Shown: positions 3,411 through 41,576, counted from the first letter of the stretch. The stretch: DNA of 64,000 bases from an uncultured Clostridia bacterium (GCA_934757865.1 CAKVLS010000002.1:102973-166972), one strand, 5' to 3'. Made by a program: numbers and translations. Notes: generated by a model from the sequence alone, not told the origin.

Positions 3411-5279
3411 TTACTCCTTATTCTCCATTGCCAAAAATGTCTTATGCACTCTAATATGTGCTAAGATTTTATCTTTTAGGTTAGGATATTTTTTCAATTT
3501 TTCTTCGTATTCATTAGATAGCATATATGCTATATGTGTCTTAATATGCAGCTCGTGGTCATCTATTTCCATTACTTCGACTTTGTTATAATTTGTTGCA
3601 AACTGCATATTTTCGCTCTCGGCGTGTTTAATATGTAGTCTTTCTATATCTACTCCGTCTTCCCAAACGCCAAAGCCTAGCATTTCAAGAAGTTTAAGTT
3701 TGTTGTAGTCAGAGATTTTACCTTCGCTGTTATATAGTAGCCCCTTATCTAACATCTCAAAAATATTTGCTCTTCTCTGTGCCAAGCTTTCGCCAAGTTC
3801 GTTCTCTGTCTCAAAAACAATATCCTCACTACCAATATCACTTGCATTAAAGTACAATACTTCGACCTCTCCCTTGTTAGAGAGTTTCAAAAGTCTAGGA
3901 GTTGTCGCAAACTGCTTATAAAGTCTCAAAATATGTTTTGCTATTTCTTTTACGGCGTATTTAATGTTGTCTATTGTTGAAGTAAGCTTTGACTCTGCTT
4001 GCTCAAGCATTAACTGTAAAGTTACACCACTAACATTGCTAGTTATTTTAGACACATCAGTGAATATATCACTTACGCCACTAATCTCATTAAACTCTTC
4101 TAATAGTCTTTGCTCTTCTTTTGTAAAGTCCGCTGGTACGCTGTCGCTTTTCAAAATATCTGGCGGATTAGAGCCTTGTCTATATACTAAGACTTTACCT
4201 GGGCATAAGCCGTCTTCTTCTAGGCTGTCTGTATCAACTGATCCGTCTTCGACAGTAAGCACACCCATAGACAATCTGTTAAGGTATTCGTGCTTTCTAT
4301 TTTTGATAGCATTGTAGGCTCTTTGGACAGGGATAATTCTTTCTATTATGCTACTGCCCCAAAAACACCCTGGAACATCAACAGATACTTGTCTTATAAA
4401 TGGATAAGTCCTCTTACCATCAATGCCGTTAATAAAAGGAAGTTCGCCCATATACAATAATTTATCTTGACAAACGGTAATAAGTCTGCCGTTAGGATAC
4501 TTGACGGTAGGGGCTTCGTACTTTTCGATAACTATTGCATGGTCTTGCTTTATGGTGCTAGAAAATTTACTTTGGCTAGCATTATATCCAAGACCGCCAA
4601 GAGTTTCTCTTTTGTCTAGCGAAAAGACATCAACTTTTTCGGGTTTAACATCTACGCCCCAGATTGATTTTACACTCTCTACGCTATATGCTTTGGCATG
4701 CATAATACTGCCGCACTCATCAAGTGAGCTGTAACAGTTAGCCTCCGGGAAGATCTCGTATGGAGGTACTGCGACTATTTCAAGGTCGCCCTCTTTTACA
4801 TCTCCACCAAGAGCATTCTTTGCTATAGTTTTGCCCTTATAATTTTTCCAAATAACCTTGTAAAAAACTGTTCCGCAAATTTCGCTCCACTTAGTACCTT
4901 CTGCGATTACTTTGCTAAGATTGTGTTTTTGGTATGTAGATTCCAAAATATCTTTTGATAACTTAGCGACTTTGATATCATTTTCTTCGCTACTTGCAGG
5001 TATAACTGACATCTTAGGTCTTATAGCCACAAGTTTGGCAAGTCTTGCATCAATAATAGGTGCTATGTGATTAAAAACTTCACGCTCTTGCCAAAAATAC
5101 TTTTTGTCATAGTCTTCTACATTGTTAAGTAGAGATATGAAGCAATATTGATTGCCTATCAAAAAGTTATTGTTAAGTTGCCACTGTGCCTCAAAACTCT
5201 TTCGCTCTTTTTGGCGGTTTTCAAAGTCTTCTTGGATTTCTTCAACAAGAAGTTTAATTTCTTTATCTTTTACTTTCAT
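3411..5279 (-). CDS. phage portal protein
   Basis: 622-aa protein encoded just downstream of terL and upstream of the scaffold and capsid genes. Size and position are canonical for a portal. Overlaps the upstream small gene by 17 nt. Confidence 0.75.
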   Translation of the reverse strand: MKVKDKEIKLLVEEIQEDFENRQKERKSFEAQWQLNNNFLIGNQYCFISLLNNVEDYDKKYFWQEREVFNHIAPIIDARLAKLVAIRPKMSVIPASSEENDIKVAKLSKDILESTYQKHNLSKVIAEGTKWSEICGTVFYKVIWKNYKGKTIAKNALGGDVKEGDLEIVAVPPYEIFPEANCYSSLDECGSIMHAKAYSVESVKSIWGVDVKPEKVDVFSLDKRETLGGLGYNASQSKFSSTIKQDHAIVIEKYEAPTVKYPNGRLITVCQDKLLYMGELPFINGIDGKRTYPFIRQVSVDVPGCFWGSSIIERIIPVQRAYNAIKNRKHEYLNRLSMGVLTVEDGSVDTDSLEEDGLCPGKVLVYRQGSNPPDILKSDSVPADFTKEEQRLLEEFNEISGVSDIFTDVSKITSNVSGVTLQLMLEQAESKLTSTIDNIKYAVKEIAKHILRLYKQFATTPRLLKLSNKGEVEVLYFNASDIGSEDIVFETENELGESLAQRRANIFEMLDKGLLYNSEGKISDYNKLKLLEMLGFGVWEDGVDIERLHIKHAESENMQFATNYNKVEVMEIDDHELHIKTHIAYMLSNEYEEKLKKYPNLKDKILAHIRVHKTFLAMENKE

Positions 5280-5562
5280 CTTTTTCGTCCTTTTGTTTTA
5301 TTAGTCTTATGAGTTTAGTTTTTTCTTCTATGAGTTCCTCGTCCGAAAAACTTTCAAACTCATTTGCCTTTGTATCATCTATATCAAGTAGAGCCTTAAA
5401 TGATTGTGGGTCGGGGGGAATATCCTTGGAGGTAATTTTTTTCTTTTGGAGCACCATACCATCTTCGCCATTAGTGTACTCTTCTATTATCTCGGTAGAA
5501 GTATAACCTAAGGCCTTTTTAAGAAGTGCCTCTTTTAGTGCTTTGTTTATATTTCTTTTCAT
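5263..5562 (-). CDS. small phage protein (99 aa) with terminase-small-subunit-like motif
   Basis: Start overlaps the terL stop (ATGA at 5559-5562). The segment 'LGYTSTEIIEEYT...KKKITSKDIPPDPQSFKALL' resembles the core I associate with Firmicute-phage TerS proteins. However, the gene lies after terL, not before it. Confidence 0.4.
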   Translation of the reverse strand: MKRNINKALKEALLKKALGYTSTEIIEEYTNGEDGMVLQKKKITSKDIPPDPQSFKALLDIDDTKANEFESFSDEELIEEKTKLIRLIKQKDEKDESKR

Positions 5563-6998
5563 AGTCTTACTTTGCTGTTTTTTAACCTCCTTATCAGTCT
5601 ATCTTTGTCTTTTGTTATGACGCTTTTTTCGTATGGCTTTTTGGCATTTTCGGGTCTTGACATTATGTAATATCTCAACTCGTCTAGGCAGTGGTCGTCC
5701 TTTTTTATCGGCACATCATTTGAGCCCCAAAAGTAACTTTTTATCTCCCTTATAAGATTGGGACAATTTTTGAATATAAAAAGTCTGCTTCTGCCGGTGC
5801 TATCTTTTAGATAACTTTTTACCTTAGATATGCCACTAAAAAGATCTTTATTAACCTTGGGATTGACTGCTATGCCGTTATCAAAGAAAAGTTCTGTTAC
5901 TGACTTTTCGCTAGCGAGAGTCTTTTGGTTAGCGGCACTATCTATCAAACTCTCAAGTCTCCCGTCACTGCCAAAATGCCAACCTAGAGATTTTGCTAGC
6001 TCTATTATTTTTTTTGCGTGATACTCAACAATTTTGCCCGACTCAAAGTGCTCGCCAACAACATATATATTGCCGTCATAATCCACCGCATAAAAGTGAC
6101 ACGACAAAGGGTTGTTAAGCCCGGGGTCAATAGATATGTTATCTTGCCACTCTTTTGGGATAGTAAATGGCTCTACAACATTTACTCTCTCGTCAAACTC
6201 TGTGTACACGAGCCCCTCCGCTGACGAAAACTTACCATACTTGCGACTTTCGAGTTCGTCACTGGACATACTTGTTTCGAGAGACAGTATTTCATTTTTG
6301 TCAAGATAAGGGTTGTCCTCCCACTGCATAAAAGTTGTCCATATATTTTCATCGCCCTTGGGGTTAAGATAGATGTCTGTATATACCCAAGTTAAACCTT
6401 TAAGTGGAGTCATTGTTCCAAATATATCTCCGCATTTGTCAAGTACTCTCATGCGGCACTCGGTGTAAATATCAAGCGGCGGCTCTTCATCAAACCAGAC
6501 ATAATCAAGAGATGTCCCTTGGAACTTTTCTCTACCCTGATCGCAACTCTTAAAACCTATCTTTGATATACCGCCCAAAGCGGATTTGATAGTTATATAA
6601 TCAATCACTCCGCCTGCGGGGCTGTCTTTTTTGCCGGACAACATAACTATATCTACTATCCAGTCAGGGTTGATATAACTTAAGACTTTACTTTGGGCGA
6701 CATCTCTCTGCACTTGCTGTGATAGTGACACCACCCAGCCGGTAGTACTCTTTTTGTTTCCTCTATACGGGTGTATGCCCCTTGCCATATACACAACTTC
6801 GACCGCTCCGCACTCAGTTTTTCCGCTTCGGTTACCACCGAACACCCACCTATTCTTTTTTGGACATTTGTGAAATTCAAGCTGTTTATAGTGGATAGGC
6901 GGAGTTTTGTTATAATACAAGACTTTGTTTGCTGTCTTTCGCCTTGCGAGTTCTTTGTCTATTTTTATTATCTTGTTTAATATGTCTGTCTTTTGCAT
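5559..6998 (-). CDS. terL: phage terminase large subunit
   Basis: Walker A 'GGNRSGKTE' near the N-terminus, an acidic Walker B-like 'YVWFDEEP', and a C-terminal nuclease-type region with conserved D residues. The ORF track starts at a TTG (7019). The ATG at 6998 (MQKTDILNK) has AAGGA upstream and is preferred. Confidence 0.9.
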   Translation of the reverse strand: MQKTDILNKIIKIDKELARRKTANKVLYYNKTPPIHYKQLEFHKCPKKNRWVFGGNRSGKTECGAVEVVYMARGIHPYRGNKKSTTGWVVSLSQQVQRDVAQSKVLSYINPDWIVDIVMLSGKKDSPAGGVIDYITIKSALGGISKIGFKSCDQGREKFQGTSLDYVWFDEEPPLDIYTECRMRVLDKCGDIFGTMTPLKGLTWVYTDIYLNPKGDENIWTTFMQWEDNPYLDKNEILSLETSMSSDELESRKYGKFSSAEGLVYTEFDERVNVVEPFTIPKEWQDNISIDPGLNNPLSCHFYAVDYDGNIYVVGEHFESGKIVEYHAKKIIELAKSLGWHFGSDGRLESLIDSAANQKTLASEKSVTELFFDNGIAVNPKVNKDLFSGISKVKSYLKDSTGRSRLFIFKNCPNLIREIKSYFWGSNDVPIKKDDHCLDELRYYIMSRPENAKKPYEKSVITKDKDRLIRRLKNSKVRL

Positions 6999-7073
6999 AA
7001 AATTCCTTTTTTTCGGCAATAAGTTATAAAAAACACTTTTAGTTTTTTACTAAAATACATTTAGGAGGCTAAA

Positions 7074-10588: not shown

Positions 10589-11242
10589 TTATCCAATATT
10601 GTCAGCTATATCATATTCCATTTTTGGTTCGTCTTTTGATATTTTACTAATAGAAATCTCATAAGCAACTCTTGTCTCAACTGTCTCATTAGGCAGTTTT
10701 TTTTGATAATCTCTACTCTGTATTCTGCCTATAATATTAACCTTTTGCCCTACTTCTGCATTTTGGACAAATCTTGCATTTCTGCCCCAAGCTATGCAAG
10801 GCAAATAATCTGACTTGTTATACGCACGATTAACCGCAACAAGTAAGTCACATATCTCCCTCTTAAAAGGCGTAGTTCTGTATATAGGCGGCTTACATAT
10901 GTATCCTGTAATTTCTATTTGGTTAGGGTTTTGGTCGCCAAAATCCTTTTCTACCTCTCTTACAAACACAGTAAGCATTAGCTTGCTTTTGCCATCAATG
11001 AGTTTGTTGTAGCTCCTAAATTGACCTTTTACAAAAATTTCCTTTCCTAATCCAAAGTCATCGTTTGTTAATAGTTTTTCGGATACAGTTATAGGTATAA
11101 TGTCGCTATTGTCAGATAGTCTTTTTACCTCAAGCTCGAGCTCATAAAAACCCTCACCAAATACCTCGTGACTAAATTCAGGCTTTGACACAACCTTTCC
11201 CATCAAAGTTACTTTGTTGTTTTCCATTAGTTCATAATTCAT
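10589..11242 (-). CDS. single-stranded-DNA-binding (OB-fold) protein, tandem-OB type
   Basis: Two OB-like halves: 'NKVTLMGKVVSKPEFSHEVFGEGFYELELEVKR...' and 'IEITGYICKPPIYRTTPFKREICDLLVAVNR...IAWGRNARF...VNIIGRIQSRDY'. There is no canonical acidic D-D-D-(I/L)-P-F tip at the C-terminus. Confidence 0.55.
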   Translation of the reverse strand: MNYELMENNKVTLMGKVVSKPEFSHEVFGEGFYELELEVKRLSDNSDIIPITVSEKLLTNDDFGLGKEIFVKGQFRSYNKLIDGKSKLMLTVFVREVEKDFGDQNPNQIEITGYICKPPIYRTTPFKREICDLLVAVNRAYNKSDYLPCIAWGRNARFVQNAEVGQKVNIIGRIQSRDYQKKLPNETVETRVAYEISISKISKDEPKMEYDIADNIG

Positions 11243-12406: not shown

Positions 12407-15400
12407 TTATACAAGATATCTATAACCTCTTAGGATAACAGGTGGCTTTTTCATCTTTTCGATAAGTTTACCTTTCCCGGTGCGGTTCTCGATTGGGCAT
12501 ACATCAGTATCTCTACCGTATAGTTTGCCATCATCAGCCTCGCCTACAACAACGAAGTTTTCTTTTACATAGCTTGCATATACAAGCTCTGTGCCGTTGT
12601 CTTTTTCGCTAAGGGTAACTATCTTGATACCCTTTCTGTATCTTGCCATTACATCTATTTGACTAACTACAACTCTCTTAATAAAGCCACGGTTGGTCAT
12701 AACAACTACTTCACCATCTTCGGTTACTTGACCGGCAAATATTACATAGTCGCCAGCATTTAGGTTAATACCTTTTACGCCGCCAGAAATTCTACCTTGG
12801 ATAGGGACATCGCTCTTATCAGCATTAAGTACCATACCACTTCTAGTAACGAATAGTAGTGTTGTTGATTTTTCTTCTACAAAGATATTGATAACTTCGT
12901 CATCATCTTTTAGTTTGATTGCTTGGAAGGTAGATTTTGAAACGCCGTATTCTTTGAAAGATGACTTCTTAACCATACCTTGTTTGGTCATAAAGATTAA
13001 GTTGCCTTTTGGCATATCTTCATCTATTGAGAATATACCACATGGGATTTCGCCCTTATCACATTTAACAACGCTTGCAAATGGTGTGCCTTTGTCCTTA
13101 AATCTAGCCTCAGGGATTGACTTAACTGGCACTTTGTAGCAGTTACCTTTGTTAGTGAAGATGTATGCTGTCTTGTCAGTATCGGTCTTGGTCAAAATCT
13201 TGTGGATTTCGTACAAGTTAGATGTTTCCTTAAACTCTTTTTGACTAGCTCCAAATGCCTTTTTGTTAATAAATTTAATATTATTAACAGCATTTACTGC
13301 GATATAACCTTCAACGACAGCTTCTTTATCATCATCTGCAGGAAGCTCCAAGCTGTCGCTAGATTTTAAAATTATTGACTTTCTGTCACTCTTATATTGC
13401 TTCTTGATAGCCAAAATCTCAGTCTTAACAACCTCAAATTGAGCTTTTTTAGAGTTTACGATAGCTGTTAGTTGTTCTACTAACAATTTGTTTTTCTTGA
13501 TTTCTTCTTGCAAATTGTTTACTTCAAGATTTGTAAGTCTTGCAAGTTTCATATCAAGGATTGCTTGTGCTTGTTTTTCGCTAAGTGAGAATCTATCTCT
13601 CAATCTTTGTTTAGCGGTTGATACATTTGGCGAAGACTTAATAATTTTGATTACTTCGTCAATGTTTTTGATAGCTATAAGTAGTCCTTCTAAGATGTGT
13701 AGACGCTCTTTTGTCCTTTCTAGGTCAAACTTGGTTCTACGAAGAACAACTTCTCTTTGGTACTCGACATAGTATTTGATTATATCAAGTAGCCCCATTA
13801 GTTTTGGCTTGCCATCAGCGATGGCTACCATATTTACGCCAAATGAGCATTGCAAATCAGTGTATTTCAATAAATACTCAACAATAGCTTTCAAATTAGC
13901 GTCTTTTTTAATTTTGATTACAGCTCTTAGTCCGTTTCTATCAGACTCATCTCTTATATCAGAGATGCCGTTTAGAATAGTGTTTTTGTCATCATCACGG
14001 AGTGCGGCTATCTTTTGAAGTACAGCAGATTTGTTAACTTGATAAGGAAGCTCAGTAATTACTACGCTACGCTTATCAGTGCCGTTGCCCTCGATATGCA
14101 TCTTAGCACGCATTATGATTTTGCCTTTGCCGGTAGCAAAAGCTTGCTCTATCTCAGATGTTGGAAGTATAAATCCGCCAGTTGGGAAATCTGGACCTTT
14201 GATATACTTCATCATTTCTTTAAGTGTAATAGATGGTCTATCTATGTATGCTACAACACCGTCAATAACCTCTGCTAGGTTGTGTGGTGGAATATTAGTA
14301 GCAAGACCAACAGCTATACCCATAGCTCCGTTGACAAGAAGGTTAGGGAATCTACCTGGTAAAGTGTCAGGTTCTTTTATTGTGTCATCAAAGTTAAGTG
14401 ACCACTTGACAGTATCTTTATCAAGGTCTCTCAAAAGTTCTAGTGCAAGAGGCGCAAGTCTTGCCTCTGTGTATCTCATCGCAGCGGCTTTATCTCCGTC
14501 TATACTACCGAAGTTACCGTGACCTGTGATAAGTATTTCGTTCATATTAAATGGCTGAGCCATTCTTACCATTGCATCATAAACTGATGTGTCGCCGTGT
14601 GGGTGATATTTACCTAAACAATCACCGACAATACGAGCAGATTTTCTATAAGGCTTGTCTGGAGTAATACCAAGGTCAAGCATTGAATAAAGTATTCTTC
14701 TTTGAACAGGTTTAAGTCCATCTTCTACTCTAGGCAAAGCTCTGTCCATAATAACATGCTCAGAGTAAGGAATCATAGACTCATGCAAAACTTCGTCAAT
14801 GTTCTTATAGAAAAGTCCTTTTCCTTCTCCACCAGAACCGTTAGAATTATCTGCATTTTCATTTGAGTTATTAGTATCTTGAACACCAGTATTTTGCTCT
14901 TGTCCAAAATCTTCTATCTTGTCCTCAAAGAAATCTTCCATTGGTTTCACCCCTTTTTCTTTTTTCATTTTTGCAAGTTTTTGCTCTTCTACTTGCTCTA
15001 AGTTTTTGTTTAATATATCCTCAATTTTTGCCTTGTAATCGCTATTGTCATCCGGCTCATCGTTCTTCGTCTCTTCCGTTTTCGCCGTTTCAGGCTCATT
15101 TTCGGGCTCTACAAAGTCATCTTTGAATATATTACCTAAACTTAACAGTTCAACATCACCCACCATAGCACCTGTTGGGACTTTTTCTGGTTGATGGTCA
15201 TCGGGCTCATTTTCTTCTAAATTATCTTGAGTATTTTCTTGAGTATCTTCTACTTCTTCAAATTCATTTTCTAGTTCGGTCTCTACATCGTCCGCATCTA
15301 TATTTTCTTTGTTAGTATCAATATCATTATCTTGATAGTCATCTTGCGAGCTCTCGTCTACCAGAGCATAAGAAGAGCCTGTTTCTTCGGCTGTCTCTAC

Positions 15401-15988
15401 ATCTTGATTATCTTCTTGTGGCTCATCATAAGACTCATCATCTAAGCTATCTTCATAATCATTTACATTAGCATTTTCTGTTTCAAGAGGCTCATCATTT
15501 GTTACTTGAGCATCTTCAAGATTTTCGTCATAAGGCTCGTCGTCAGTATTTGTCTCTTGGCTATCTGCTGCAAGGCTACTCTCGTCAAGCATTAAGCTCT
15601 CATCGTCTGCCTCTGCATCTTGCGAAGCTGACTCATCTATATTTTGCTCTTCTGCATTTTCGATTATATTTTTATCAATATTGCTATCTGTTATCTCTTG
15701 ACTATCGCCGCTTTCGTTGGATTCGTCTGCAAATGTCTGGATATTGATAGCGTTTTGAGAAGCTTCATTATCTTCTCTACTCATAGTAGAGTCCATATTT
15801 TTTGTATCTTGATTACTATGGACCGCACATAGGTCATCAAGCGATATTTGACCATCTATTGGATTATTGGTTATTGATTCATCAACTTGCTCTTTGGTAG
15901 ACATTTCGTAATACAAATCTTCTAGTCCAAGCTGACCGTCTATAGGGACATTTTGATTTTCATCAAAGTCTTTTTTCTCGTCGTCCAT
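12407..15988 (-). CDS. parC: DNA topoisomerase IV subunit A (ParC) with a ~390-aa hyper-acidic N-terminal extension
   Basis: From residue ~393: '[22 protein letters not shown]', '[17 protein letters not shown]', active-site '[10 protein letters not shown]'. The C-terminal domain resembles B. subtilis ParC ('[23 protein letters not shown]', '[14 protein letters not shown]'). I find no GyrA box (QRRGGKG), so topo IV rather than gyrase. The ATG at 15988 is preceded by AAAGGAGG and the whole 1193-codon frame is open. Confidence 0.85.
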
Positions 15989-16046
15989 AGTTCCTCCTTT
16001 TACAAAATTTTATTGTTTGATTATTTATTTGTTTGATTTTTAAGTT

Positions 16047-18005
16047 TTAGTCTTCGTTTAGTTTTTCGAAGTTGCTGCTTTCTTTATTGAAGTTTACATA
16101 CTCGCTCAAATATGCTTTACGAGCGTCAATATTATCACCCATTAAGGTTGTTACCATACGTTCAGCGTTAGCAGCATCTTCTACACCTACTCTAAGTAGT
16201 GATCTCTTAGCTGGGTCCATAGTTGTCTCCCAAAGTTGTTCTGGATTCATTTCACCAAGACCTTTGTATCTCTGGATGCTGTAACCCTTACCAAAACGCT
16301 TGATTGCGTCTGGTAGCTCTTTATCAGAATAAACATATTCAACAGTGTCTTTTTTGCTTATCTTGTATAGTGGTGGAAGACCAATATATACATGTCCATG
16401 AGTAAGTAGGTCTTTCATATATCTAAAGAAGAAAGTCAAAAGTATTGCTCTAATATGAGCGCCGTCTTGGTCGGCATCGGACAAAATAATTACTTTATGA
16501 TATTTTAGGTTATCAATATCAAAGTCCTCGCCAATACTTGTGCCAAGAGCACCGATTATTAGTTTAATTTCCTCGTTAGCTAGTACTTGGTCAAGACGCT
16601 TTTTCTCGGCATTAAGAGGTTTACCTCTTAGTGACAAAATAGCTTGGAAACTTCTGTCACGAGCTTGTTTAGCACTGCCGCCCGCAGAATCTCCCTCAAC
16701 TATAAATATTTCGTTTTGTTCTGGCTTTCTACCTGAGCAAACAGCAAGTTTACCGATTAGACTAGAATTTTCTATGCTATTTTTTTGTCTAGAAATTTCC
16801 TTAGCTTTCTTTGCGGCAAGTCTTGTTCTTGCGGCTGATTTTGCCTTATTAATTATTACTTCAACTATCTTTGCATTTTCTTTTTTATCAAAGAATTTAT
16901 ATAGCTCATTGCAAACAATATTTTCTACAATAGTCTTAGCTTCTGGGTTGCCAAGACGAGTCTTTGTTTGACCTTCAAATTGTGTATTACGCATTTTGAT
17001 AGCCAAAATACATGTAATACCCTCTCTAAAGTCCTCGCCCATAAGGTTGGATTCTTTTTCTTTTAGATAGCCTTGCTTTTTGGCGATATCGTTAAGAACT
17101 CTAGTAAGAGCAGATTTTAGACCTGTCTCGTGAGTTCCGCCCTCTGTTGTGCAAATATTATTAACAAATGAAAATACGCTCTCAATATATCCGTCTGTGT
17201 ATTGAATAGCTAGGGCAAGTTTAAGTCCGTCCTCTTCGCTTGCGCCCTCCACATATATTGGAGTATCATGAATAACAGTTTTTGTCTCGTTAAGGTATGA
17301 GATAAAGTCCTTTAGACCGCCATCATACTTATATGAAACATTGCTCTTCTCCTGCTCATCAATAAAGTCAATTTGGACGCCTTTATTAAGAAAAGCAAGT
17401 TCACGAAGTCTTTTTTTGATAACATCAGAAGAAAAAGTATGTCCTTGGAATATTGCGTCATCTGGCAAAAATCTAATAAATGTACCAGTCTTGTTCTCGG
17501 CGCATGTTCCTATCTCTGTAAGAGGCTTTTGGGTAACGCCGCCTTTGATATTGCCTTCACTATCAGGAATAGACGCAAACTCTATCTCATATACTTTTCC
17601 GCCACGCCAAATAACAGCTTTAAGCCATTTACTTAATGCATTAGTAACAGACGCACCAACGCCATGTAGTCCGCCAGAATAGCTGTAGTTAGAATTGTTA
17701 AATTTACCACCAGCATGCAACTGAGTAAAGATTACTTCTGCGCCAGATTTTTTTAGGGTTGGGTGCATATCAACCGGTATACCACGGCCATTATCTTCTA
17801 CACTTACGCTGCCGTCATTATATAAAGTAACAACAATCTTATTGCCGTAGCCGTTAGCTACTTCGTCCATACTGTTGTCGACTATCTCCCACAAAATATG
17901 ATGAACACCTCTACTGCCAGTACTGCCTATGTACATACCAGGTCTAAGTCTTACAGCATCAAGACCTTCTAGTACTACAATATCCTTTGAGCCATACGAT
18001 TCCAT
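16047..18005 (-). CDS. parE: DNA topoisomerase IV subunit B (ParE; GyrB-family)
   Basis: GHKL ATPase and Toprim motifs: 'LRPGMYIGS', 'GLHGVGASV', 'EGDSAGGSAKQARD', 'LRGKPLN', 'DADQDGAHI'. Start at ATG 18005 (MESYGSK) after GAGGGGG; the ORF-track start is a TTG at 18020. The ParE call follows from pairing with the ParC-type A subunit. Confidence 0.8.
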   Translation of the reverse strand: MESYGSKDIVVLEGLDAVRLRPGMYIGSTGSRGVHHILWEIVDNSMDEVANGYGNKIVVTLYNDGSVSVEDNGRGIPVDMHPTLKKSGAEVIFTQLHAGGKFNNSNYSYSGGLHGVGASVTNALSKWLKAVIWRGGKVYEIEFASIPDSEGNIKGGVTQKPLTEIGTCAENKTGTFIRFLPDDAIFQGHTFSSDVIKKRLRELAFLNKGVQIDFIDEQEKSNVSYKYDGGLKDFISYLNETKTVIHDTPIYVEGASEEDGLKLALAIQYTDGYIESVFSFVNNICTTEGGTHETGLKSALTRVLNDIAKKQGYLKEKESNLMGEDFREGITCILAIKMRNTQFEGQTKTRLGNPEAKTIVENIVCNELYKFFDKKENAKIVEVIINKAKSAARTRLAAKKAKEISRQKNSIENSSLIGKLAVCSGRKPEQNEIFIVEGDSAGGSAKQARDRSFQAILSLRGKPLNAEKKRLDQVLANEEIKLIIGALGTSIGEDFDIDNLKYHKVIILSDADQDGAHIRAILLTFFFRYMKDLLTHGHVYIGLPPLYKISKKDTVEYVYSDKELPDAIKRFGKGYSIQRYKGLGEMNPEQLWETTMDPAKRSLLRVGVEDAANAERMVTTLMGDNIDARKAYLSEYVNFNKESSNFEKLNED

Positions 18006-18324
18006 ACATATCCCCCTCAAAAATTTTTGCTTGCATAAAAATACAATATTTTTAACCTAGATACTAAAATCTATCGTCAAAAATTTTGATATAATTTATT
18101 TATTTTTTACGATTTTATTATAACACAATATACTTTATTTTCCTAACAATTTTTGCATAAAAATAAATTTTTTTGACATTATTACAAAGCCAAAAACATT
18201 TGATGTTTTAGTTATGCAAAAATATGCATATTTATGCATTATAAAGCATAAAAATAATGTCAACTAAGCGTCCAAAATATGATAAAAACGTATAACAAAC
18301 ACAAAAAATACATATATATAAAGT

Positions 18325-27499: not shown

Positions 27500-28134
27500 T
27501 ATTTGTTCTCCTTACTTTTTAGTTGCTCCTCAGCTTGACTCAACCCTATATAACATGGAGATAACTTTTCGCTAAACTCGCCCTTTCTTATCTTGTCCAT
27601 TACATAGTCATTTAGGTCCTTTTCGTCTACGCTAACCATTTCTCCCCCAAGAGTACTAGCTGGAGTTATAATTTTTGCATCTTTAACATATTCGCCAAGA
27701 TGTTCTAGTTCTACAACGCTATCATCTTCTAGCCTTTTGCCATTTTCAAATATTGCCAAATATACTTTTTTGATAGTGGTAGGTATAATAGCTGCTACCT
27801 TTGATGCATCTTGAGTCTTCTTATAGTAGCTATTATACAATAGTTCCATTGCGTTAACAGCTATGGCTTTGATTTTTTTATTTACCATCATCATAGCTTT
27901 TGCGGTCGAAACAGCAATTCTTATACCTGTAAAAGACCCCGGTCCAACTACTACGCCTATGTAGTCCAAATTGGCTACATTAAAATTTTTCTTAGTAAGT
28001 AGTTCATCAACAGCTGGCATCAAAGTCTCCAAATGTTTAGGTGTATTGTACTTTTTGCCAATTATTAGCTCATCACTTGCATTAAGTGCTACTAGCATAT
28101 TGCTGCTAGATGTGTCCATTATTAGTGTGTTCAT
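27499..28134 (-). CDS. tsaB: tRNA t6A37 biosynthesis protein TsaB (YeaZ)
   Basis: 'LIMDTSSSNMLVAL' and 'VVVGPGSFTGIRIAVSTAKA' are hallmark YeaZ motifs. Confidence 0.85.
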   Translation of the reverse strand: MNTLIMDTSSSNMLVALNASDELIIGKKYNTPKHLETLMPAVDELLTKKNFNVANLDYIGVVVGPGSFTGIRIAVSTAKAMMMVNKKIKAIAVNAMELLYNSYYKKTQDASKVAAIIPTTIKKVYLAIFENGKRLEDDSVVELEHLGEYVKDAKIITPASTLGGEMVSVDEKDLNDYVMDKIRKGEFSEKLSPCYIGLSQAEEQLKSKENK

Positions 28135-29420
28135 TAGTTTAATCCTTTTATCTCTATCTCACGAGTGTTATCGTCTATTTTTTTAATATCTACAACAATG
28201 CAGTCCTTAGGCAAAAGATTTGGAACTTTTTCTGACCACTCGATAAGTTTGACAGCGCCTTTTTCGTCTATAAGCTCATCAAGTCCGGCAGCCATAGCCT
28301 CCTCTTCGTCTTCTAGTCTGTACATATCAAAATGATACATTGTAAACTTACCAGAGTACTTGTTGACGATAGTAAATGTTGGGCTAGTAACAGGTTCTTT
28401 AACCCCTATACCCTCAGCAAAACCTTTTGCAAAAACAGTCTTACCGCAACCAAGGTCGCCATTAAGAAGAATAACTTCTCCACCTTTCATCTGTTTAGAA
28501 ACTTTTTTGCCAAGTTTCAAAGTATCATTTTCACTTTTCGAAATCATTTTATTTCTTCCTTTTAATTTTGATAAAATGTAAGGAACAAGACAAGTAATCA
28601 CAAGCCCCATACTCCAATATTTTAGAGTAATGATATACTTATTAACTGAACCCGTGCATAGCACAAGGACAAAATCAAGTGCAATAATAGGCACGCCAAT
28701 CAAAAGTTTAATCCATACATTTTTATATTTTTTGTAGTCGTATTTTATAAATCTGTCTTCAATATTAACGCCAGCAACAATACTCATAAACAAGCTACCC
28801 ATAACGCTAATTTTAGACGAATTAAGCACAATAAGTAGTACCAAATACACAGGCTCTGCAAGAAGTAGCCATCTATAAAATTTCATGCTCTTAATATTGA
28901 CAAATCTAAAAAATACATAAGAAATACCAAATCCAAGCGCCGCTCCTACTAAGACATCTGTTAAATAATGTACGCCAAGGTACATACGAGAAAACATAGT
29001 CTGCACGCATAGAAAAATGCCAACTACTAGTGCAGTTATAAATAACCTATTGTCTTTTGAGCTCTTTCTATACTTATCCGTCTCGTAAATGTTATATCCA
29101 GCTATTGTAGCTACTGATGCAGAGTGCCCAGATGGGAAGGAATAACTTGTAGGATATCCACTATATGGAGGATACTTGCTACTAACTTTTAGTGGGCGTG
29201 GGCGTCTAAAAATATTCTTAAATACAACACTATTAACAACAGACACTGCGCAATATGTTACTGCAAAGTTTAGACTATATTTTTTGTCATACAGCCAGTA
29301 CAAAAGTGCAAATGCAACTACAAAGCCAAGCATTGCCCCAAAGTCCGTCACAAATGAGAAAAAGCTGTCCCAAAATGGAGTCCTCAAAGCTTGTAAGCCC
29401 TCTATAATCTCTAGATCCAT
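28134..29420 (-). CDS. tsaE: fusion protein: PAP2-family membrane phosphatase (BcrC/PgpB-like) + extra TM helices + TsaE (t6A ATPase)
   Basis: N-terminal part carries all three PAP2 motifs (KNIFRRPRP; FPSGHS; SRMYLGVHYLTDV). C-terminal part is TsaE ('LNGDLGCGKTVFAKG', 'SPTFTIVNKY', 'HFDMYRL'). It is one uninterrupted frame. Start at ATG 29420 after GGAGAG. An internal AAAGGAAG + ATG at 28547 could also yield free TsaE (137 aa). Confidence 0.8.
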   Translation of the reverse strand: MDLEIIEGLQALRTPFWDSFFSFVTDFGAMLGFVVAFALLYWLYDKKYSLNFAVTYCAVSVVNSVVFKNIFRRPRPLKVSSKYPPYSGYPTSYSFPSGHSASVATIAGYNIYETDKYRKSSKDNRLFITALVVGIFLCVQTMFSRMYLGVHYLTDVLVGAALGFGISYVFFRFVNIKSMKFYRWLLLAEPVYLVLLIVLNSSKISVMGSLFMSIVAGVNIEDRFIKYDYKKYKNVWIKLLIGVPIIALDFVLVLCTGSVNKYIITLKYWSMGLVITCLVPYILSKLKGRNKMISKSENDTLKLGKKVSKQMKGGEVILLNGDLGCGKTVFAKGFAEGIGVKEPVTSPTFTIVNKYSGKFTMYHFDMYRLEDEEEAMAAGLDELIDEKGAVKLIEWSEKVPNLLPKDCIVVDIKKIDDNTREIEIKGLN

Positions 29421-29545
29421 AATATTCTCTCCAAAAATTATTATATCAAATCTGCCCACAAAGTTACAAATAAATTAACTATATTATACAAATATTATTT
29501 AATAAACAGCTACCATGTATCAGTTATTTTTAGTCAATTTTTTTA

Positions 29546-39074: not shown

Positions 39075-39389
39075 GTTAACATTTTTAAGTTCCTTTTTTA
39101 GCCTTATCTATTTTACTATTTTCATACCTATCTTTACTATTTTTCTATTTATGCTCTTTTTCATTTTCATAAGTTTAACAAAAAATTCTATTTTTGCAAA
39201 ATGCTATCAAGATAAGACAACTCTAACATGATATTTTGTCATAAAAGTTTTACTCTCTTATAGCAAAAAGTTTCAAATGTCAGCCCAAATATAAACTATA
39301 TACATAATATTAACTATATTTTTGGGCAAAAACTCTAATTATGTAATTTTTTGTTTTATTATATTTTTTTGTTGTGCTATACTCCTTAT

Positions 39390-41576
39390 ATGGAAAGTAT
39401 AAAAAAGCAAGATACCGAAGCACGCAATAATATACTTAATGGCAATATCGTCAAGACTATGCTTGGCATAATATTGCCACTTTTTGCTTATGCGATGCTG
39501 GACAAAGTCTATACTTTATTTGACACCTTTGTTATCACAATAAGCAACAAAGGCACTGCTAATGGTATAGCTTATCTTGGCGAAATAAAAAACTTAATTA
39601 ACTGTGTCGGCTGGGCAACAATCACTGCCATGGTAACACTTGTCAGTCAGTCAATCGGCGCTAAGGACACCAAAAAAGCTAACAAATATCTTGCATCTAC
39701 ATTTTGGGCAATGTGCGCTCTTAGTGCTATTATCATATTCGTGTTTATAGGTTTTGGGCAACCAATACTTACACTAATGAACACCCCAAAAGAAATAATT
39801 GATTCTTCTTATGGCTACTACATAGTGACTGTATTTTCTATAATCATAGGATTTTTTAACTCGCTATACACCGGTATTGAAAAAGCCAAAGGCAGAACAA
39901 CCAACATGCTATATGTCAACATGGGCGTTATCGCTATCAAAATGATACTTAGCTCAGTGCTTGCATTTAGTGGAATACCTAATGTAACAAATACGCATTT
40001 TGCATGGGCAACAATCATCGCCCAAAGTTTCATGCTAATATTTGCTTTTAAGACACTTTTTGGCAAAAAGCAAACTTATAGAGTGCAAAAAGGTGCTTTT
40101 GACGGCAATTTGTTAAAGCTAGTTATCAAGATTGCCCTTCCACTTTTCCTTGGAAGTTTTGTATTTTATGGTACTAAAATATTCATCAACTCTAAACTTT
40201 CTGAATACTACGGCACATCATTTGTTACTATCTGGAACTTACTAGCACTTATTTGTAGTTTTACTGAGACATTTTCGACAGCGGTTAGAAATACCACAAA
40301 CACTATGACCGCCCAAAATTATGGCTCGGGCAACTACTCTAGAGTCAAAAAAATATATACTTGCGGACTTATAATCTCTATAGCCCAGTGCCTACTTGTT
40401 CTTACTGTTTTGACTATTTTCAAAGAGCCTATTATACGCTTCATAACTCGTGGCAATAGTGAAAATTATAAACTTCTACTACTATTCTTCACTATCCAGA
40501 GATATGACTACATAACAATAGCCGCCAACGAGACAACTCTTGGAGCAATAGGAGGCCTAGGCAGGACTAACGCAAACTTCATAAATCAAACTTTGCGTAC
40601 ACTTGTTTGCCGTGTTCCTACTCTATTTATCTATCATGATGTTTTGAAGTTAGGCATAGAGGCTGTACCTCTACTACCTACTATAACTAATATTTTACCT
40701 CTTGTTGTCATTGTTATTTGGGAACTTATGCTTCTTAAAAACATTGAGCATTTGCCACCACCAAAGGCCACCGAAGAAAAAGTTTCTCCAAGCAAGTTCT
40801 TGCAAGAATACCGCAAAGACAAAGAAAAAGTCTTGGTATTTGACTGCGATGGAACTTTGGTCAATAGCAAAGGCAAACTTACTGACAAGACATACAAAGC
40901 GCTAGTTAAAGCAAATAAAAAGCACAAAATTATTATCGCCACCGGCAGAGCTTTATGCGAGACACTTCCTATATTTAACGGGCGACCTGTCGTGTGCGAC
41001 TATATGCTATGCTGTGACGGTGCGATAATCTATGATATAAAAAACAACACTGTTATAAACTATAACGAAATACCTCGAGATTGGTTAAAGAATATTATCA
41101 AAAAAGCCCGCAAATATGGAATAAAAAATGTATTCTACTTCGTAGCTGATGGCAAGATGATAACAACTGATGACAAGTTATCAAAAATGCCAAAGAAGCC
41201 TATCGTAAAATTTAACATTTATTTTAACGATTACGACCATGTATCGCCTTTTGTTGCTTATCTAAAAAACAACTATATATCTCTTGATACTATTAGTATG
41301 AAGGACTCCTTCTCTCCTAAGTGCTGGGTAGCAGGTGTATATCGTGGCATAAGCAAAGGCGAAAGACTAGAAAAACTATTAACCCTAATAGGCAAAACTC
41401 CAGATGACGCAATAGCCTTTGGGGATTCGGTCAATGACATAACGATGTTCAAGACCTGTCACGCTGGCGTTGCGATGGATAATGCAGAACCTAGTCTAAA
41501 AGAAATAGCCACCTACACAACTAAGAGTTATGACGAAGATGGCGTAGCATTCTTCATTAACAAATATTTAATCTAA
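39390..41576 (+). CDS. fusion protein: MATE-like (MOP superfamily) 12-TM transporter + C-terminal Cof-type HAD phosphatase
   Basis: N-terminal ~460 aa are polytopic with a MatE-like pattern ('TMLGIILPLF...', 'LVSQSIGAKD..KA'). From ~40839 the HAD motifs appear: 'VLVFDCDGTL', 'IIIATGRA', 'FGDSVNDITMF', 'AMDNA'. Start is uncertain: ATG 39390 (MESIKKQ) is preferred over the ORF-track TTG at 39351. Confidence 0.75.
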   Translation: MESIKKQDTEARNNILNGNIVKTMLGIILPLFAYAMLDKVYTLFDTFVITISNKGTANGIAYLGEIKNLINCVGWATITAMVTLVSQSIGAKDTKKANKYLASTFWAMCALSAIIIFVFIGFGQPILTLMNTPKEIIDSSYGYYIVTVFSIIIGFFNSLYTGIEKAKGRTTNMLYVNMGVIAIKMILSSVLAFSGIPNVTNTHFAWATIIAQSFMLIFAFKTLFGKKQTYRVQKGAFDGNLLKLVIKIALPLFLGSFVFYGTKIFINSKLSEYYGTSFVTIWNLLALICSFTETFSTAVRNTTNTMTAQNYGSGNYSRVKKIYTCGLIISIAQCLLVLTVLTIFKEPIIRFITRGNSENYKLLLLFFTIQRYDYITIAANETTLGAIGGLGRTNANFINQTLRTLVCRVPTLFIYHDVLKLGIEAVPLLPTITNILPLVVIVIWELMLLKNIEHLPPPKATEEKVSPSKFLQEYRKDKEKVLVFDCDGTLVNSKGKLTDKTYKALVKANKKHKIIIATGRALCETLPIFNGRPVVCDYMLCCDGAIIYDIKNNTVINYNEIPRDWLKNIIKKARKYGIKNVFYFVADGKMITTDDKLSKMPKKPIVKFNIYFNDYDHVSPFVAYLKNNYISLDTISMKDSFSPKCWVAGVYRGISKGERLEKLLTLIGKTPDDAIAFGDSVNDITMFKTCHAGVAMDNAEPSLKEIATYTTKSYDEDGVAFFINKYLI

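Follow-up and report, generated by a model that had tools for sequence, protein, structure and literature searches.

The parE-parC locus and identity of the A subunit

Analysis of a 64,000-nucleotide stretch of DNA from an uncultured Clostridia bacterium (GCA_934757865.1, CAKVLS010000002.1:102973-166972; hereafter the window, at its full length) revealed a parE-parC locus in which the ParC-like A subunit of a type IIA topoisomerase carries a long, acidic N-terminal extension. The parC open reading frame (ORF) occupies positions 12407..15988 on the minus strand and encodes 1193 amino acids (aa), as supported by Pfam, NCBIfam and motif checks. Its ATG (15986-15988) is preceded, at a spacing of 4 nt, by the Shine-Dalgarno (SD) sequence AAAGGAGG (15993..16000, minus strand), so that the 1193-codon frame with an SD-preceded start described in an initial annotation of this DNA is borne out. 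The gene for the type IIA B subunit, parE, identified by domain matches, lies upstream of parC on the same strand (16047..18005) and is separated from it by a gap of 58 nt. The mechanically called parE ORF opens at a TTG at 18020; the ATG at 18005 (MESYGSKD...) is the likelier start and fits the 652-aa parE of a relative, L014, in which the parE-parC synteny is shared with the window.

The canonical ParC body, composed of the winged-helix/tower/coiled-coil region and a β-pinwheel C-terminal domain (CTD), comprises aa 393-1193 (12407..14812, minus strand), as delimited by Pfam, NCBIfam and AlphaFold2 (AF2). The Pfam DNA_topoisoIV match begins at aa 416, with the breakage-reunion domain PF00521 covering aa 416-858 (E 4.3e-160); the catalytic tyrosine is Y506, located in AAMRYTE, and the CTD contains three PF03989 (DNA_gyraseA_C) blades. 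The scores against the NCBIfam parC_Gpos model (727, cut-off 813) and the gyrA models (820-842, cut-offs 877-902) were below their cut-offs, and the subfamily model "DNA topoisomerase (ATP-hydrolyzing)" alone was passed (769, cut-off 654). A pattern scan of the window ParC found no GyrA box (QRRGGKG). By gene context the parE-parC locus is not the dnaA-dnaN-recF-gyrBA region, and no dnaN was found among the window ORFs checked. Based on the missing GyrA box, the context away from dnaA-dnaN-recF and the source names of the homologs, the A subunit is likely ParC, a subunit of topoisomerase IV (Topo IV).

Composition and anatomy of the N-terminal extension

Since the Pfam and NCBIfam models begin to align only at aa 394-416, with the gyrA and parC models of NCBIfam starting at aa 394-397, aa 1-392 (14813..15988, minus strand) constitute an additional segment, and the earlier placement of the onset of ParC similarity near residue 393 holds. 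This segment is polyanionic and predicted to be disordered. Its net charge is -104 and its isoelectric point (pI) 4.05, unlike the basic ParC N-terminal body (pI 9.1) and CTD (pI 8.9). With about 0.068 stops per codon expected from the composition, the chance of finding 392 stop-free codons was estimated at p ~1e-12. None of the other window ORFs contains a hyper-acidic stretch; a genome-wide habit of acidic insertions was rejected for this window on that ground. No tandem DNA repeat was found in the extension, and tandem-repeat expansion as the source of the spacer was rejected likewise.

AF2 modelling, based on a 71-sequence alignment, gave a predicted local distance difference test (pLDDT) score below 50 over most of aa 1-395, in line with the disorder that structure prediction had been proposed to check. 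The exceptions are predicted helices at L22-T31 (pLDDT ~50-66), L50-H57 and aa 318-343 (pLDDT ~75). The winged-helix region of the body was also modelled with oddly low confidence, probably owing to the shallow alignment and the use of a monomer model. The dominance of D, E, N, Q, S and T noted in the initial annotation was confirmed (D+E 0.32, N/Q/S/T 0.29, K+R 0.06, hydrophobic 0.20), but the extension is not featureless, as it has conserved islands at aa 1-86 and 225-392.

The first island contains two copies of a short motif, designated motif A: copy 1 at aa 15-26 (15911..15946, minus strand) and copy 2 at aa 43-54 (15827..15862, minus strand). These correspond to the two N-terminal PIDGQ-type copies reported earlier. 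A hyper-variable acidic spacer follows at aa 87-220 (15329..15730, minus strand). The second island holds three elements, all on the minus strand. A motif B-like segment at aa 281-292 (15113..15148), invariant among the close relatives aligned, is the local form of L-x-[DNK]-F-F-[KDE], which is present in one to three copies in the middle of the linker in most extension-bearing homologs. A predicted amphipathic helix at aa 318-343 (14960..15037), modelled by AF2, is conserved in the subclade (DYKEKIEEILDE...). Finally, a motif C-like segment at aa 349-361 (14906..14944), which includes M350, is the counterpart of the FFEN[DE]EN[SA] module, found in the wider clade as FFEN[DE]EN[SA]...INKDY...VG.DVF at a fixed position about 65-71 aa ahead of the core. 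The extension can be divided into three layers: a conserved tip of about 86 aa, a polyanionic spacer, and a semi-conserved core-proximal module with FF motifs and a predicted helix.

Distribution and selective maintenance of the extension

Comparison with the 120 closest homologs showed that 57 of them carry an N-terminal extension, 70-684 aa in length, and that those without it begin about 30 residues ahead of DRALP. In a neighbour-joining tree built from the core region the carriers form one clade. They are uncultured Clostridia of low GC content from the guts of animals and humans, and one is labelled Christensenellaceae. The ortholog alignment proposed in the initial annotation therefore gave a divided answer: presence of the extension is conserved within one clade, and its length and composition vary. 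The median net charge per residue in the clade is -0.20, with extremes of -0.33 and 0.00.

A fusion of an unrelated upstream ORF to parC by misassembly or frameshift, raised earlier as a possible source of the long frame, was not seen: the identical 1193-aa protein was found on three independent contigs (NCBI, ENA) and the same architecture recurs in dozens of independent assemblies, and this explanation is effectively refuted. Comparison with the syntenic, 85%-identical gene of L014 gave a dN/dS of 0.05 for the core, against 0.28 for the extension and 0.17 for its first 60 codons, and the two indels between the window and L014 (92 and 4 codons) are both in frame. The members of the 90% identity cluster have lengths of 1193, 1185, 1113 and 1108 aa. 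Proteins with near-identical cores have lost 75, 79 or 92 residues through independent, in-frame deletions confined to aa 87-220, and aa 1-86 and 225-392 are nearly invariant among these cluster members. By these sequence comparisons the extension is translated and selectively maintained, and the stretch is coding and part of the topoisomerase A subunit, as had been proposed.

The tolerance of the middle of the extension to large deletions would also be expected from a neutral low-complexity expansion, with the working enzyme being a short isoform initiated at M350 or near the core. An internal SD-like sequence, AAGGGGTGA, does stand ahead of the M350 ATG (nt 14939-14941), as the initial annotation had pointed out. 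The short isoform suggested there found no such agreement: of the ten closest homologs, only P0001-3 and P0007 have Met at this position, and the other six (P0004-6, P0008-10) have Val. Furthermore, purifying selection acts on the tip (the dN/dS of 0.17 above), which lies some 1 kb ahead of M350, more than 50 lineages keep the motif at the extreme N-terminus with 200-680 codons open throughout, the SD in front of the upstream ATG is strong, and the feature is stable across the whole clade. We therefore regard neutral expansion as very improbable.

A tandem motif at the N-terminal tip

Motif A was found in 84 instances in the 57 extension-bearing homologs, with the consensus P-I-D-G-Q-[ILM]-[GS]-[ILF]-[ED]-[ED]-L-(Y). 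G and Q are invariant in the 84 instances, and P, I, D, the two following hydrophobic positions (Φ), [DE] and L are strongly preferred. There are usually two copies, 25-29 aa apart (28 aa in the window), at the extreme N-terminal tip, and in some second copies N replaces G (PIDNQISLDDF). In the AF2 model motif A is flanked on both sides by residues with pLDDT below 50, as part of a flexible terminal segment, and a short helix is predicted to start in both copies at Φ4, the fourth residue counted from Q (L22 and L50). By sequence conservation, the conserved feature of the extension is this tandem tip motif, rather than acidity or length, which vary across the clade.

This bears on a further explanation, put first in the initial annotation, in which the polyanionic chain would act as an intramolecular DNA mimic or autoinhibitor, competing with G- or T-segment DNA for the basic surfaces of ParC. 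A charge of -104 over 392 aa opposite a basic body and CTD, together with the negative median charge across the clade, is what such a role would lead one to expect, and the acidic tails of E. coli GyrA, known to tune DNA handling, offer a possible analogy. However, acidity is not universal, with some members reaching a net charge per residue of 0.00; length differs tenfold within the clade (70-684 aa), and 75-92 acidic residues are missing in near-identical strains; and the strongest constraint falls on short motifs containing hydrophobic residues rather than on charge. Autoinhibition by DNA mimicry is thus improbable as the main role, and a DNA-mimic effect may coexist with tethering as a secondary property of the spacer. 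The docking region that the initial annotation had offered as its alternative fits better, motif A being the most conserved part of the extension, and that the tip is a partner-docking motif is, in our judgement, highly probable.

In the cellular sequences searched, the motif proved largely specific to ParC. It was not found in the other genes of the window. A strict degenerate DNA pattern for copy 1 gave only 13 matches in 185,579 species genomes; 11 of these lie at the N-termini of extension-bearing ParC proteins in metagenome-assembled genomes of low-GC Clostridia, and the remaining two, in high-GC actinobacteria, are apparent chance matches. A profile of the double motif searched against 1.84 billion representative proteins returned 23 matches, nearly all of them N-terminal fragments of ParC. 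The same profile run by a word-indexed search gave nine short fragments and was uninformative.

In two odd profile matches, P0130 and P0138, a 16-aa unit (P.RRGQISF[TA]E[LF]E.P, or RGQISFxELExP in short form) is repeated in tandem, from 11 times to over 20. Its GQISFxE resembles motif copy 2; the two proteins were judged probably unrelated. Among the ParC homologs, P0013 has an extra SRQLSLSDFDG insertion beside the core (extension aa ~300-312) with the look of a third copy, and P0101, which falls outside the main clade, bears one VIDGQMGFDEF in an extension of 95 aa. P0013 and P0101 give a hint that the motif was gained repeatedly or has a deeper origin.

Resemblance of motif A to clamp-binding motifs

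The canonical peptides that bind the bacterial β sliding clamp (DnaN) follow the consensus QL[SD]LF or QxxLF (PMC12309361), or the hexapeptide consensus QLxLxL (PMC4564189). When motif A was compared with the published clamp-binding consensus, Q1, Φ2 and Φ4 agreed in all 84 instances, whereas the acidic positions 5 and 6 departed from it. Known clamp clients such as PolC (QLSLF), Pol IV (QLVLGL-COOH) and Hda (N-terminal QLSLPL) are alike in having an invariant Q followed by Φ-x-Φ in a disordered terminus, and show that the motif is usable at either end of a protein. The clamp-binding motif of Pol II is GQLGLF-COOH. ParC differs from these clients in three respects: two acidic residues stand between Φ4 and the last hydrophobic residue, giving a heptapeptide of PIP-like form; there is a conserved P-Φ-[DE]-G prefix and the copies are in tandem; and the carrier is a type II topoisomerase.

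The heptapeptide form was also compared with the PCNA-interacting protein (PIP) box, Q-x-x-[ILM]-x-x-[FY]-[FY]. The spacing of Q, Φ4 and Φ7(-Φ8) agrees, as does the helix predicted from Φ4 onwards; position 7 of motif A is mostly L (62 of 84) and position 8 is Y in 36 of 84, departing from the aromatic pair of the PIP box. The β-clamp is the bacterial clamp, and PCNA is not bacterial. The resemblance is one of form, and common descent is not implied.

The same peptide at the C-termini of gut phage proteins

The strict pattern also matched one viral contig, at the extreme C-terminus of a protein of about 100 aa ending in ...EADNTPIDGQIGLEELK directly before the stop codon. A relaxed pattern gave 55 matches in viral contigs, and all 55 correspond to the last 12-14 residues of phage proteins belonging to two families, a four-cysteine orphan (family 1) and Mor (family 2). 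The peptide spans the final 6-14 residues of the carrier proteins. Internal matches of the motif, in integrases with rve/chromodomain regions, a Phd-type antitoxin and high-GC proteins, were treated as coincidental.

Family 1 is a phage orphan of about 98-100 aa with invariant cysteines C21, C24, C40 and C60 and without a Pfam or PHROG match. It was found at L015:4105-4407 (+), L016:8001-8306 and L018:8001-8297, in most of L020-L097, and in L098-L151 and L162-L221, and is very abundant in human-gut data. The genes lie in early replication/recombination modules with a Lin1244/DnaD-like initiator, RecT, YqaJ, SSB (single-stranded DNA-binding protein), ParB_N and a methylase. AF2 modelling of this putative Zn-finger protein gave a pLDDT of 46, too poor for a fold search. 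A tblastn search with the protein and its tail against 50,697 cultured-phage records gave no relevant match, and viral scans for the "EV-stop" form and for the motif-2 pattern gave no matches.

The tails of family 1, of which ...DNTPLEGQISLEV is an example, are always preceded by P-Φ-[DE]-G. Of the 68 full-length members, 46 end exactly in Q-Φ-x-Φ-E-V-COOH (QISLEV, QISFEV, QMMMEV), placing the hexapeptide at the exact C-terminus as in Pol IV, about ten end in QISLEEL[KT], and two in QISLF-COOH; a distant member ends in GQLKLGI-COOH. QISLF is the canonical pentapeptide (PMC12309361), and QLKLGI and QΦxΦEV fit QLxLxL (PMC4564189). On the strength of these tails the family 1 orphan probably docks on the sliding clamp of its host.

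Family 2 consists of Mor-family late transcription activators (PF08765, phrog_532/836) to which the peptide is appended after the Mor domain (L079:1489-1860; L093:4657-5031; L133; and L152-L161, with the match at ~1501-1830). The Mor tails initially found end in ...RKPIDGQMNLEDFL and ...RPIDGQMTMEEFLK, each at the stop codon. Ten relatives from viral contigs have tails of two types. Those of the motif A type are PIDGQMNLEDFL and PIEGQMELMDFLQ, both terminal, and PIQGQMSLNDYIK... and TGQITLMDF...; those of the canonical clamp-binding type are QPDLFSNLSK, QQDLFG and QIQLDLLDVQ, again terminal, and NQATLFDL.... These data suggest that late transcription in such phages may be coupled to the host clamp. 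A precedent is known in phage T4, in which the C-terminal clamp-binding tails of gp33 and gp55 couple late transcription to the gp45 clamp. The Mor activators of the gut phages appear alike in bearing a C-terminal tail of the same or of canonical clamp type, and differ in that the T4 proteins belong to other families and use another clamp.

As judged from tail sequences, the peptide is a portable terminal module that is evolutionarily interchangeable, in two independent families, with textbook ligands of the DnaN cleft. It is this swapping with canonical clamp-binding motifs at orthologous phage positions, a matter of sequence comparison, that links motif A to clamp binding. The resemblance to clamp-binding peptides, called weak in the initial annotation, is much strengthened by clade conservation and by the interchange of the phage tails.

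A candidate link between Topo IV and the sliding clamp

Taken at face value, motif A would be a variant DnaN-binding motif with PIP-box-like spacing, Q-x-x-Φ-x-x-Φ. We lean slightly towards a reading in which Topo IV is tethered to DnaN behind replication forks by a polyanionic disordered leash that bears two motifs of clamp-binding-like form. With two motifs per chain, and thus four per ParC dimer, both clefts of the clamp dimer could be occupied and avidity raised, and bivalence may compensate for weak individual sites. Topo IV would thereby be concentrated on the clamps left behind on DNA just replicated, from which precatenanes have to be removed. The acidic spacer would serve as a non-sticky tether, repelled by DNA, that sets the reach. 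DnaN as the partner, bivalent binding and replication-coupled decatenation are all three inferred. For the fuller proposal, in which a bivalent PIP-box-like module wires Topo IV to the sliding clamp in place of MukB-type recruitment, and gut phages reuse the peptide to connect a small Zn-finger protein and their Mor-type late activators with the clamp of the host, in an echo of the clamp-dependent late transcription of T4, the balance falls a little on the negative side.

Several observations weigh against a DnaN tether. In motif A acidic residues occupy positions 5 and 6 and the final hydrophobic one comes only at position 7, so that there is no strict match to the clamp-binding consensus. 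The double-motif profile revealed no second cellular family among the 1.84 billion representatives, where a hub motif might be expected on more clients; a single short copy of the motif falls below the sensitivity of that search. The link to DnaN leans on phage proteins in which the motifs interchange, and for these proteins, too, the clamp is a putative partner. Most of the tail-bearing phages have a GC content of about 0.5, against 0.28-0.42 for the ParC hosts, and because of this mismatch the phages probably infect other Clostridia. The tether model accounts neither for the conserved motifs B and C nor for the conserved helix of aa 318-343. In the literature searched, neither a Topo IV-DnaN link nor a topoisomerase acting as a clamp client was found, and there was no description of an N-terminal extension of ParC.

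A partner other than DnaN is the next reading. The tip motif might dock onto SMC-ScpAB, FtsK/SpoIIIE or another part of the replisome, or might act in cis as a latch on ParE or on the ParC CTD. Conservation and portability of the motif point to docking as such and not to a given partner, and the form found in ParC departs from both canonical clamp-binding patterns. By the established type IIA architecture the extension would leave the body near the TOPRIM/DNA-gate region of ParE, which makes docking in cis geometrically possible. Targeting of Topo IV through another protein is itself established for MukB in E. coli (PMC3950513, PMC5061553). Against a different partner stand the phage tails, which at orthologous positions alternate with QISLF-COOH, QLKLGI-COOH, QPDLF, QATLF and QQDLF, all textbook ligands of the DnaN cleft; and a cis latch on ParC or ParE leaves the Zn-finger and Mor carriers of the phages unexplained. 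We consider a non-DnaN partner unlikely, while taking it more seriously than DNA mimicry.

The DnaN tether can be set beside two arrangements in E. coli. In the MukB-ParC interaction, too, a partner concentrates Topo IV where sister DNA needs unlinking; there, a folded surface of the ParC CTD binds the MukB hinge, whereas here the candidate is a short linear motif on a leash. To our knowledge, MukBEF is not expected in Firmicutes-type Clostridia. The E. coli GyrA tail is likewise an acidic, disordered appendage of a type IIA topoisomerase A subunit, but it is about 35 aa long and C-terminal and affects how the CTD wraps DNA; the ParC extension is N-terminal, ten times longer and variable in length, and has conserved docking motifs at its tip.

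As far as we know, it is only for E. coli and related bacteria, with their MukBEF, that the way in which Topo IV finds newly replicated DNA is understood. If the DnaN tether is correct, a ParC with its own clamp-docking peptides would provide a concrete and testable recruitment mechanism for bacteria without MukBEF, a type II topoisomerase would join the clamp clients, and the heptapeptide would be a PIP-like variant of the clamp-binding motif that current consensus patterns overlook. Its parallel use by abundant human-gut phages, one of the carriers being a late-transcription activator, suggests that the host clamp is competed for or exploited. The extension also presents a clean natural case of a disordered tether, with free length and sequence and fixed terminal motifs. 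ParC, disordered tethers and clamp-type short linear motifs are each of a known kind; the novelty appears to lie in combining them, in the heptapeptide form that the motif takes and in its being shared with gut phages.

Neighbouring genes

A protein of the SSB family, 217 aa in length and scoring above the cut-off of NCBIfam PRK05813, is encoded two genes downstream of parC (10589-11242, minus strand). This gene is syntenic in L014, and a replication-related neighbour thus accompanies parE-parC. Phage packaging genes are located a few kb from parC on the minus strand, a P22-like portal being encoded at 3411-5279 and the large subunit of a T4-type terminase at 5559-7019. In L014, too, the terminase is close to parC, and a conserved prophage remnant may be present here. 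Elsewhere in the window, two apparently unusual fusions were found, a 441-aa protein joining a PAP2 phosphatase and TsaE (28134-29459, minus strand) and a 741-aa protein joining a MatE transporter and a HAD/Hydrolase_3 phosphatase (39351-41576, plus strand).

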